From positions 2,112,001 through 2,176,000 of the forward strand of contig OY970208.1 of the NCBI GenBank assembly GCA_963713865.1: a stretch of DNA of 64,000 nt, written 5' to 3'. The position numbers were made by a program, and so were the translations under genes. Below the pieces are notes generated by a model. It did not search any database and had not been told where the DNA came from. It saw nothing but the letters and a program-made list of their open reading frames with translations. Shown piece by piece: positions 20,571-22,092 of this stretch; the stretch's first letter is position 1; each line of letters starts with the position of its first letter. This DNA is from an uncultured candidate division Zixibacteria bacterium. Its GTDB lineage: Bacteria > Zixibacteria > MSB-5A5 > RBG-16-43-9.

Positions 20571-20676
20571 AAAATCCTACCTCTTAAGACAACTACTACT
20601 TTACGTAAGTTTTTGCTTTAGATGGAATTACAGATATGTTATCGCCAGATTGTTCAAAATCTTAACAGGGGAATGA

Positions 20677-20755
20677 GAGTTCGTTCGTTTGATCGTTTGG
20701 AGTTTGAAGATTTTCGAACAAACTAACAAACTAACAAACTTCCAACTGTATTTCC
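20677..20755. repeat. tRNA-downstream palindromic spacer made of AGTTTGTT-like octamers (copies at 21604-21654 partial, 21729-21814, 21884-21971)
   Basis: Shared minus-strand GG(G/A)AATACAGTT..AGTTT start; gttt tracts face inverted aaac tracts. Confidence 0.85.
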
Positions 20756-20838
20756 TGGAGAGGGGAGGATTCGAACCTCCGAAGGCGATAGCCGACAGAT
20801 TTACAGTCTGTTCCCTTTGGCCGCTCGGGAACCTCTCC
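20756..20838 (-). tRNA. tRNA-Tyr(GTA)
   Basis: GGAGAGG...CCTCTCCA, anticodon loop CTGTAAA, long variable arm. Confidence 0.95.
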
Positions 20839-20880
20839 AAAAAGCAGTTTAGGAGTTTATAAGTTTAAAAGTTTATACCC

Positions 20881-21258
20881 TCAATCTACTTTACGGAATG
20901 AATTTATAAGGGCTACCAGTAAGGTTAAAACCTCCTTACTTTTATTTATTAAAATATCCTAGCTAACTTTATCAAAATATTTTTGCCGAAAGGCTAATTC
21001 AAAATAGGTTATTGCTTCAGCTAAAGATCCTTTGGCAACAAACAGGAATTGAATAAATTCCTTTTTTGACTGCCTAAAACTACCTTCGGCAATATTAGCC
21101 GGAACTGAATTAATCGCTTTAAAAAGCTGAGGTATAAGTATGTTCGACTCCCTTTTAGGAAATTTCTCTGAAATCTGGTAAACAGTATCTGCCAGCTCAA
21201 CTGCTTTTTGCCAGACAATCAATTTTCTGAATCCAAAATCTTTTTCTTCTTTTTCCAA
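20881..21258 (-). pseudogene. Four-helix-bundle protein (23S rRNA IVP/Avd-like family) with in-frame TAG at 20959-20961
   Basis: FRKLIVWQKA...FP...QL...SVPANIAEG...F...AKGSLAE; reading through the TAG gives DILINKSKEVLTLLVALINSFRKVD, consistent with the missing last helix. Confidence 0.85.
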
Positions 21259-21302
21259 CTCTTAAACCTTCTAAACCTCTTACACTTTTAAACTGTCTTT
21301 TT

Positions 21303-21364
21303 AGCGGGAGACGGTATTCGAACCCGCAACCAATCCAGATGGATGACTCTAGCCAATGGAGTTA
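21303..21364 (-). pseudogene. Partial tRNA-Gly-like copy with anticodon arm replaced; overlaps the GIY-YIG stop codon
   Basis: TAACTCCATTGGCTAGAGTC-ATCCATCTGGAT-TGGTTGCGGGTTCGAATACCGTCTCCCGCT. Confidence 0.85.
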
Positions 21365-21603
21365 ATGTTTCTCAACAATTTCTTGAAATCCTTACTTTTT
21401 ATATCCTTTAAAACCCTCTCTCTCTTTATCGCTTTCCCTCTGGTTGGAAATTTTTCCACATAAATCAACTCAAGAGGTACTCGTTTTTTTGTTGACTTAA
21501 TCCTTCCAGAATTGTGATACTGTAATCTCTGTTCAAGGTTCGAGGTTTGGCCAATATAAAGATTCCCATCCTTCTGGCTTTTTAAAACATAAACGTAATA
21601 CAT
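21349..21603 (-). CDS. Small GIY-YIG nuclease
   Basis: MYYVYVL...YIGQT..LEQRL..HN.G...ST...E...RE..LK; ATG at 21603. Confidence 0.92.
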   Translation of the reverse strand: MYYVYVLKSQKDGNLYIGQTSNLEQRLQYHNSGRIKSTKKRVPLELIYVEKFPTRGKAIKRERVLKDIKSKDFKKLLRNINSIG

Positions 21604-21654
21604 TTTAATTTCTCTTACCAACGAATAAACTGACAAACTTTAAACTGTATTCCC

Positions 21655-21728
21655 AGCGGGAGACGGGATTCGAACCCGCGACCAACAGCTTGGAAGGCTG
21701 TGACTCTAGCCAACTGAGTTACTCCCGC
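21655..21728 (-). tRNA. tRNA-Gly(TCC)
   Basis: GCGGGAG...CTCCCGCT, anticodon arm ACAGC-CTTCCAA-GCTGT. Confidence 0.95.
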
Positions 21729-21814
21729 AGAAAGAGAGTTTGTTCGTTTATTTGTTTGGAGTTTGAAGATTTTCGAACAAACTTACAAACTAATAAACTC
21801 CAAACTGTATTCCC

Positions 21815-21883
21815 AGCGGGAGATGGGCTTCGAACCCGCGACCAATCCAGATGGATGACTCTAGCCAACTGAGTTACTCCCGC
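21815..21883 (-). pseudogene. Full-length tRNA-Gly-like copy lacking an anticodon loop
   Basis: Matches 21655-21728 except that the 17-nt anticodon arm is replaced by ATCCATCTGGAT and there are two T-arm substitutions. Confidence 0.9.
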
Positions 21884-21971
21884 AGAAAGAGAGTTTGTTC
21901 GTTTGTCAGTTTGACCGTTTGGAGCTATTTCGGACAAACGTACAAACTAACAAACTCCAAACTGTATTCCC

Positions 21972-22043
21972 AGCCGATGAGAGGGATCGAACCTCCAACC
22001 AACTGATTACAAATCAGTTGCTCTACCATTGAGCTACATCGGC
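21972..22043 (-). tRNA. tRNA-Thr(TGT)
   Basis: GCCGATG...CATCGGCT, anticodon loop TTTGTAA. Confidence 0.95.
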
Positions 22044-22064: not shown

Positions 22065-22092
22065 ATTATAATTTTTCAAAGAACAAAGCCAA
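22065..22092 (-). promoter_or_regulatory. Probable promoter of the tRNA cluster
   Basis: TTGGCT-16 nt-TATAAT about 20 nt upstream of tRNA-Thr. Confidence 0.5.

Follow-up and report, generated by a model that had tools for sequence, protein, structure and literature searches.

How does the gene of a small GIY-YIG nuclease come to lie within a tRNA array, beside an intact tRNA-Gly(TCC) gene and between two copies of this tRNA in which the anticodon arm has been exchanged for a hairpin? The question is raised by a locus on the minus strand of a 64,000-nucleotide (nt) stretch of DNA (the window, i.e. the whole stretch that was analysed) from the 2.72-Mb genome of an uncultured Zixibacteria bacterium (designated G000; other G numbers denote related genomes). 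We consider it probable, at roughly 0.6, that the locus is one member of a widespread selfish, homing-like cassette of tRNA loci, in which the hairpins would be the cognate sites of the nuclease. For this locus and its homologues we observed the association of nuclease genes with tRNA genes, a characteristic architecture, selection on both the open reading frame (ORF) and the hairpin, and turnover among relatives.

Organization of the tRNA-Gly locus

The original prediction, made from the letters of the sequence, had placed the following parts in order on the minus strand: tRNA-Thr(TGT), a spacer, altered tRNA-Gly copy 1, a spacer, tRNA-Gly(TCC), half of a spacer, the ORF of an 84-amino-acid (aa) protein and altered tRNA-Gly copy 2. 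This order was confirmed, and the parts that constitute the cassette are as follows:

21815..21883, minus strand: hairpin-marked tRNA-Gly copy 1, full length (Rfam 39.3 bits); ATCCATCTGGAT at 21845-21856; bridged by independent contigs
21655..21728, minus strand: intact tRNA-Gly(TCC), the sole one in the genome (ARAGORN; Rfam 68.1 bits)
21604..21654, minus strand: linker composed of the 5′ half of the spacer and a short leader to the ATG (sequence comparison)
21349..21603, minus strand: gene of the 84-aa single-domain GIY-YIG nuclease (Pfam PF01541, E 1.7e-19)
about 21303..21364, minus strand: hairpin-marked tRNA-Gly copy 2, from tRNA position 8 to the 3′ end; 12-nt hairpin at 21333-21344

In both altered copies the 17-nt anticodon arm was indeed found to be replaced by the same 12-nt palindrome, ATCCATCTGGAT, which occurs four times in the genome (two of these occurrences being those in the altered copies), while a reversed control pattern gave no match. 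The claim that the nuclease gene ends within copy 2 was likewise borne out: its last codons (N-S-I-G) and the TAG stop are read from the D-arm of this copy.

Neither copy has the features of a functional tRNA. Both lack a 7-nt anticodon loop and carry one T-stem mismatch each, and copy 2 also lacks a paired acceptor stem. Copy 1, with its anticodon loop collapsed, scores above the cut-off of the Rfam tRNA model (29 bits); copy 2, which has lost the 5′ acceptor strand, is for that reason absent from the Rfam tRNA matches at E≤1. ARAGORN called canonical tRNAs alone and therefore neither of the two.

A homologue of copy 2 is present in G007, G008, G020, G027 and G031; the upstream copy of G007 and G008 is decayed in its 3′ part. 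Copy 2 of G007, G008 and the lineage represented in public sequencing runs contains an extra mini-hairpin, CCCTACGGG, in the T-arm, which indicates that hairpin replacement is ongoing and patchy.

The original prediction had named an assembly artefact as one way in which it could fail. The arrangement is no such artefact, since the junctions are bridged by contigs of the public runs X2 and X3, both of one study (20791-21603, 21679-21823 and 21798-21970), and the independent assemblies G007 and G008 show the same order of parts.

The 84-aa GIY-YIG protein

The protein belongs to the GIY-YIG superfamily (PF01541: 70.3 bits against a cut-off of 22.6, residues 1-71 of 84). The predicted Tyr, Arg and Glu signature of the endonuclease domain was recovered, residues Y5, Y16, G18, R26, N31 and E62 being invariant in an alignment of six clade members. 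The protein consists of the catalytic domain alone, as in the stand-alone proteins of the UPF0213/YhbQ type, and no DNA-binding domain besides GIY-YIG was found in it. Its best matches among solved structures are the UPF0213 proteins EF2693 (1ywl, E 6.6e-10) and BH0048 (1zg2, E 5e-8), which are of the same size and single-domain.

Other collections yielded little: no NCBIfam model scored above its cut-off, the defence-system libraries gave weak N-terminal matches alone (none better than E 1e-4), and the sole match in PHROGs was weak and N-terminal (E 1.4e-4). Among 50,697 phage records there were seven weak matches, all below 40% identity.

In the comparison of the window ORF with that of G007, the proportion of nonsynonymous differences (pN) was 0.11, against 0.77 for synonymous differences (pS). 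For G000 against five other genes of the Gly clade, pN ranged from 0.11 to 0.22 and pS, which is saturated, from 0.77 to 0.91. The nuclease ORF is under purifying selection.

Other cassettes in the same genome

The genome contains eight small GIY-YIG ORFs, plus one 614-aa UvrC-like gene. In six cases the ORF stands immediately 3′ of a tRNA gene of the same orientation and precedes an altered copy of that very tRNA; the host tRNAs are Gly(TCC), initiator Met (three times), Ser(GCT) and Ala(TGC). By our own arithmetic, chance would place about 1 in 100 ORFs that near to a tRNA gene.

At initiator tRNA-Met there are three tandem units, 344 nt apart and encoding identical nuclease proteins. In each of the Met copies the D-loop is replaced by TCCGCC-TGC-GGCGGA, and the 3′ strand of the anticodon stem together with the variable region by TTCGCC-AA-GGCGAA. 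In the Ser(GCT) cassette the anticodon arm is partly replaced by TCCCGCC-GCT-GGCGGGA, and in the Ala(TGC) cassette, located inside an rRNA operon, the anticodon arm of the copy is deleted. A tRNA-Ser 3′ fragment comes after the seventh ORF, which is a pseudogene, and the eighth (G000:C1 321520-321732) has no tRNA near it and is bracketed on both sides by a different repeat.

This repeat (region G000:C1:321285-321800) is a 40-52-nt element that begins with GTCATACT and has two weaker copies elsewhere in the genome. The same start is seen in the NTSvar repeat printed in the paper on the Ssn nucleases (PMC11893778), to which we return below. The clade of the eighth ORF (10 rows of the protein tree) is never near a tRNA.

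Two marked 5′ copies were found without an ORF. Upstream of tRNA-Val(GAC) (G000:C1:1963800-1963900) the anticodon arm of the copy has become TCCCGC-AGATAT-GCGGGA, and upstream of tRNA-Ser(GGA) (G000:C1:2062340-2062445) the copy bears a D-loop hairpin and a double hairpin in the anticodon loop. Both look like remnants of lost cassettes.

Other tRNA genes are followed by plain tRNA sequence. Behind tRNA-Pro(GGG) (G000:C1:1898360-1899008) stand a 158-aa ORF and an exact copy of tRNA positions 30-77 without a hairpin, resembling an attachment-site (att) remnant and thus a different kind of insertion. Behind tRNA-Glu(CTC) (G000:C1:2664289-2676122) a 450-aa ORF and three plain 3′ tRNA fragments are spread over 12 kb, which suggests serial integrations.

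A rule based on the replication strand was considered for the cassettes and rejected as inconsistent. The cumulative GC skew locates the origin close to 2.70 Mb and the terminus close to 1.91 Mb; the Gly and Ala cassettes thus run in the direction of replication and the tRNA-Met cassettes head-on to it.

Distribution among relatives and other phyla

The first set of genomes comprised G000 and 40 relatives, from the same genus to the same class, in which 106 GIY segments were scored. Small GIY-YIG matches were present in 36 of the 41 genomes, often several in each, and five had none. An intact tRNA gene lay within 300 nt of 63 of the 106 segments, in every case (63/63) on the same strand, upstream of the segment in 41 and downstream in 22. 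A tRNA fragment was located within 200 nt of 65 segments, and for 50 both an intact tRNA and a fragment of the same tRNA species were found.

A wider scan of species-representative genomes identified 527 relatives among the first 600 candidate stretches, and the best 80 loci were analysed, four or five of which duplicate genomes of the first set. These 80 loci represent about 20 other phyla and about 20 tRNA species; they include Zixibacteria (the nearest kin), Ignavibacteria, Bacteroidota, Candidate Phyla Radiation (CPR)/Patescibacteria, Acidobacteriota, Elusimicrobiota, Chloroflexota and proteobacterial groups. Of their 95 GIY segments, 60 had an intact tRNA within 300 nt, 64 a fragment, 78 either of these and 45 both from the same tRNA species. 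The association of homologues with tRNA-like sequence, which had been proposed as a check of the original prediction, is thus strong in both sets. A single mutated copy that was duplicated once, the local accident against which the prediction had also to be checked, does not describe these loci, in which independent tRNA species carry independent hairpin replacements.

In the commonest layout, at least one 5′ marked fragment is followed by the intact tRNA, the ORF and a 3′ marked fragment, and this is the order found in the window; in an alternative layout a 5′ marked fragment precedes the ORF, and the intact tRNA comes last. The outermost left copy retains the native 5′ end and the upstream spacer, the outermost right copy retains the native 3′ end, and the ends of the marked copies that face the ORF are truncated. 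To judge from these junctions, the layout fits the insertion, into a resident tRNA gene, of a unit bearing the ORF and enough tRNA sequence to rebuild the gene. Tandem ORF-plus-marked-copy units or 5′ marked fragments were noted at several tRNAs, in loci L111 (a Zixibacteria metagenome-assembled genome (MAG), 780-1520), L124, L149 and L172; L111 has two tandem units at tRNA-Gly, and L172 up to five 5′ marked fragments.

In a protein tree of 93 rows, the nucleases associated with Gly(TCC), Ala(CGC), Ala(TGC), Thr(GGT), Met, Ser(GGA) and Ser(GCT) form one clade each, with 97-99% SH-aLRT support, and the tRNA label changes 16 times along the tree, against a mean of 59 for shuffled labels. In the joint tree of 177 rows there are 52 label changes, against a shuffled mean of 125 and a possible minimum of 25; targets have therefore been conserved within clades and switched many times. 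An Ignavibacteria nuclease that falls outside the Zixibacteria Gly clade is also located at tRNA-Gly(TCC). The clustering of labels is by itself no proof of target-specific homing, as kin share labels.

A conserved family of hairpins

In the Gly-type cassettes the stem of the hairpin is ATCCA/TGGAT, with loops AA, AC, AT, GA or TC. Instead of this stem, GTCCA/TGGAC and CCCA/TGGG are found in two Zixibacteria lineages, i.e. changes on both sides of the stem that preserve pairing, and the hairpin of the Ignavibacteria Gly cassette is ATCCCGC-AA-GCGGGAT. We tabulated 33 distinct replacing or inserted segments across tRNA species and phyla, plus further ones, and most of these conform to (T/C)CC(C)GCC-N2-4-GGC(G)GG(A/G), sometimes doubled; compensated variants such as CCCGTC/GACGGG and CCCGAT/ATCGGG also occur.

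Rewriting of the tRNA is not peculiar to the anticodon hairpin, as the original prediction had supposed, since hairpins of this family replace or interrupt the anticodon arm, the D-loop, the variable region or the T-arm. Different nuclease lineages at one and the same tRNA bring different hairpins (Zixibacteria and Ignavibacteria at Gly, Zixibacteria and Elusimicrobiota at Ala(GGC)), so that it is not the tRNA that determines the hairpin. The stems, which are non-coding, are identical in G000, G007, G008, G020, G021, G026, G027 and G031, and this identity argues for constraint, or for continuing conversion between the copies.

Two other origins of the hairpin were considered and rejected. A palindrome formed by fold-back (P-nucleotide) synthesis from the anticodon TCC does not account for the hairpins of tRNAs other than Gly, which begin with TCC too. 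Nor is the hairpin what remains of two terminal inverted repeats once the ORF is lost, because complete, even double, hairpins are located on one side of intact ORFs.

Turnover among relatives

The Gly locus of G001, a member of the same genus, has a truncated ORF and neither of the two marked copies; G006 has likewise lost the marked copies, and its ORF shows a frameshift as well as a truncation. The original prediction had called for empty sites to be sought in related genomes, and these exist: G035 and G040 contain cassette-free tRNA-Gly genes, the former 100% identical to the tRNA-Gly of the window. At initiator tRNA-Met, three units separate the tRNA from its native flank in G000, and in the syntenic region of G001 the tRNA abuts this flank and no ORF is present. 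A solo marked copy lies 125 nt further on in G001, with both hairpins identical to those of G000.

Homing endonuclease genes pass through a life cycle of invasion, amplification, decay and loss, and the turnover observed here matches it.

Other features of the tRNA array

The cassette is embedded in an array with the following further features:

22065..22092, minus strand: promoter-like site, TTGGCT-16-TATAAT (10/12 matches; consensus match alone), upstream of tRNA-Thr
21972..22043, minus strand: tRNA-Thr(TGT), first gene of the array (ARAGORN; Rfam 75.1 bits)
21884..21971, minus strand: inverted-repeat spacer, 88 nt (repeat families D1, D2 and D4)
20959..21258, minus strand: ORF of a four-helix-bundle protein, 23S rRNA IVP family (PF05635, E 1.4e-27; TIGR02436)
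20755..20839, minus strand: tRNA-Tyr(GTA), next gene of the array (ARAGORN; Rfam 54.5 bits)

The promoter-like site is likely to drive the whole array, including the cassette, and the parts of the array are probably co-transcribed, because no terminator-like site was found between 20600 and 22250. The spacers at 21884-21971, 21729-21814 and 20671-20754 are copies of one imperfect inverted repeat of about 85 nt, which may serve as a stem in the processing of the tRNA operon; they stand after tRNA-Thr, Gly copy 1 and tRNA-Tyr, respectively, and the intact tRNA-Gly is followed by the 5′ half alone.

The ORF of the IVP family is situated between marked Gly copy 2 and tRNA-Tyr, and stops at a TAG that interrupts the full match to the family (20914-21228). 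The ORF is conserved next to the cassette in relatives: G001 has an intact version in this position, and G006, G007 and G008 contain it too. G000 has seven copies, one of them between tRNA-Arg and tRNA-His; a second location is G000:C1:206665-206985. It may represent another type of small passenger gene in tRNA operons, and its membership of the cassette is only putative.

Resemblance to Ssn and a possible mechanism

According to the available text of Chenal et al. (2025; PMC11893778), Ssn is a 94-aa single-domain GIY-YIG protein that binds its NTS hairpin in single-stranded DNA (ssDNA) only and cuts upstream of it. Any loop is tolerated, the genes are flanked by hairpins, the hairpin repeats termed SRMs are 20-50 nt long, and the NTS consensus is given as a GTCAT flank followed by the core TCCCGCG...CGCGGGAAT. 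The word tRNA does not occur in the main text of that paper, and in 12 of its 14 supplement files it occurs in gene descriptions alone.

The cassettes share with Ssn a small single-domain protein (about 90 aa), and the short hairpins with conserved stems and free loops that flank the gene may be a further parallel. In addition, the NTS core and flank, as printed there, resemble the GAGTCAT that precedes the hairpin in the window and the TCCCGC(C)...(G)GCGGGA of related cassettes. The differences are that the hairpins described here lie within tRNA gene copies and are few per genome. The 12-nt hairpin stands on both sides of the tRNA-plus-ORF unit of the window; it is shorter than an SRM and folds weakly.

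On this basis a mechanism can be proposed. The cassette would consist of a single-domain GIY-YIG gene, an intact host tRNA that keeps the cell viable, and at least one disabled, hairpin-marked copy. It would have entered the tRNA gene as a unit with sufficient tRNA sequence of its own to restore a functional gene. The cognate ssDNA site of the nuclease would be formed, as for Ssn, by the hairpin and by the D-stem and variable-region sequence next to it, and nicks at these sites would stimulate homologous recombination between the tRNA-derived repeats. Such recombination could amplify, delete or copy the unit, and could let it enter the same conserved tRNA gene in other genomes. What the nuclease cuts, how the unit moves and that the duplications are made by the nuclease are points that we infer from the arrangement of the loci.

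Several results weigh against this reading. The published SRM search motif is not enriched: the genome contains four matches, five Markov controls contain 1-13, and no GIY gene of the genome has a match within 500 nt. The PDB matches of the 84-aa protein include no Ssn chain, its closest solved relatives being UPF0213 proteins and not a characterised Ssn. As single-stranded DNA, the window copies do not fold significantly better than shuffled sequences (z = -1.8 for copy 1 and -1.4 for copy 2), the minimum-energy fold of copy 2 does not form the hairpin, and the hairpin itself, with 4-5 bp, is thermodynamically marginal.

Other such points concern the distribution of the cassettes. Neither a tRNA nor a fragment is near 29 of the 106 segments of the relatives, mostly members of two separate clades, nor near 17 of the 95 segments of the wider set. 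All 11 rows of the window's Gly clade are kin, and within this lineage the Gly cassette looks vertically inherited, so that the match between clade and tRNA could partly reflect orthology, not target-specific homing. The difference between G000 and G001 at tRNA-Met could be a gain in the former or a repeat-mediated loss in the latter. Finally, marked copies persist without an ORF (Gly in G026, Met in G001, Val(GAC) and Ser(GGA) in G000), and they can therefore survive without the nuclease gene.

Alternative explanations

The main rival is classical double-strand homing with immunity, in which the nuclease would cut the cassette-free tRNA gene, repair would copy the cassette into it, and the hairpin would be no recognition site but a destroyed target, which would shield the spare copy and lessen the homology between repeats. 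It has a precedent in SegB of phages T4 and T6, described in the available sections of two reports (PMC2330249, PMC13096335) as a free-standing GIY-YIG homing endonuclease of tRNA gene clusters that recognises a motif of the tRNA T-arm, cuts double-stranded DNA at a 27-bp site, is inherited by nearly 100% of the progeny of crosses and amplifies tRNA-segB segments. Here, too, a GIY-YIG gene is lodged among tRNA genes, the three units at tRNA-Met and the two at tRNA-Gly of L111 recall this amplification, and an essential tRNA arm is destroyed in every marked copy.

However, the intact tRNA beside the ORF keeps its native sequence and would stay a target, and destruction of a site does not call for perfect, compensated hairpins of a conserved family. 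Disabled tRNA copies marked by hairpins are absent from the descriptions of SegB in those sections. Moreover, SegB is phage-borne, whereas the protein studied here is chromosomal, has 84 aa and a single domain with no separate DNA-binding domain, and found only the few distant phage matches reported above. We therefore regard double-strand homing as unlikely, though worth keeping in mind.

A domesticated host function is less probable again. The nuclease and its sites might modulate the uptake or integration of transforming DNA, by analogy with SsnA of Neisseria, for which a role in transformation is reported in the text available to us (PMC11893778), or might act on foreign DNA that bears tRNA genes. 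Purifying selection on the ORF and the retention of the Gly locus across two families of the order would suit such a function; decay of the ORF in G001 and G006, the five genomes of 41 without a match, the variable copy number and the tandem amplification would not. Nor did the defence families provide a match better than the weak ones mentioned above, and the sites are few and confined to tRNA copies.

The original prediction had also suggested that the altered copies act as decoy RNAs or processing signals, and a role as functional tRNA-like RNAs (decoys, signals for processing of the operon or ends of an RNA-level element) now appears very improbable. Copy 1 does keep a full acceptor stem and its tRNA score, and it is probably co-transcribed with the rest of the array; yet copy 2 and most marked copies elsewhere are without one acceptor strand, the upstream copy of G007 and G008 is degenerate in its 3′ part, tRNA-like portions have decayed differently from one relative to another, the T-stems of both window copies are mismatched, and hairpins strike D-loops and T-arms as well. 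SsnA, which serves here as an analogy only, is described in the same text as inactive on RNA.

Integrase-borne islands resemble the cassette in that they sit at a tRNA gene, restore it with tRNA sequence of their own and leave a displaced partial copy. They differ from it in that the unit described here is about 350 nt long, its copies include 5′ halves and bear hairpins, and its junctions are found within the anticodon, D and T arms and are not restricted to the 3′ end. No integrase was found among the ORFs between 20000 and 23500, and copy 1 is of full length, in agreement with the view of the original prediction that the locus is unlike an ordinary att remnant. Ordinary debris, from tandem tRNA duplication with random decay or from leftover integrase att sites, is hardly credible as an explanation, for although this genome also has plain, hairpin-less 3′ tRNA fragments that follow cargo of other kinds (at Pro(GGG), Leu(CAA) and Glu(CTC)), the pattern described here recurs over many tRNAs, genomes and phyla with conserved hairpins that show compensatory changes, and does so at this locus with no integrase ORF and with copies that include 5′ halves.

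Significance of the cassette

We thus return to the selfish, homing-like cassette as the preferred explanation of the locus. A more specific form of it, to which we would give somewhat less than even odds, is that the Ssn-like nucleases have a large branch specific to tRNA loci, whose cognate ssDNA sites are the marked copies, and that nuclease gene, site and homology arms derived from the tRNA together make up a self-contained mobile module of about 350 nt. Spread over some twenty phyla, this module would invade tRNA genes, rebuild them and amplify them with neither a transposase nor an integrase. In the literature available as full text, to the exclusion of subscription journals, we found no description of small bacterial GIY-YIG genes flanked by hairpin-marked tRNA copies. 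The kinds of element to which the cassette is related, free-standing homing endonuclease genes and Ssn nuclease-hairpin pairs, are known, and the locus in the window is a clear and well-preserved member.

Annotation should leave the marked copies out of the count of tRNA genes. If the proposed reading is true, it would account, in bacterial genomes and MAGs, for many scrambled tRNA loci and for many tRNA calls of an aberrant or pseudo type, and each nuclease-hairpin pair would be a candidate site-specific ssDNA tool, as has been proposed for the Ssn enzymes. The common tiny proteins annotated as "GIY-YIG nuclease family proteins" would acquire a function, that of driving a minimal selfish element, and the movement of DNA would depend on nothing more than a nuclease of 10 kDa, a short hairpin and the fact that tRNA genes are universally conserved.

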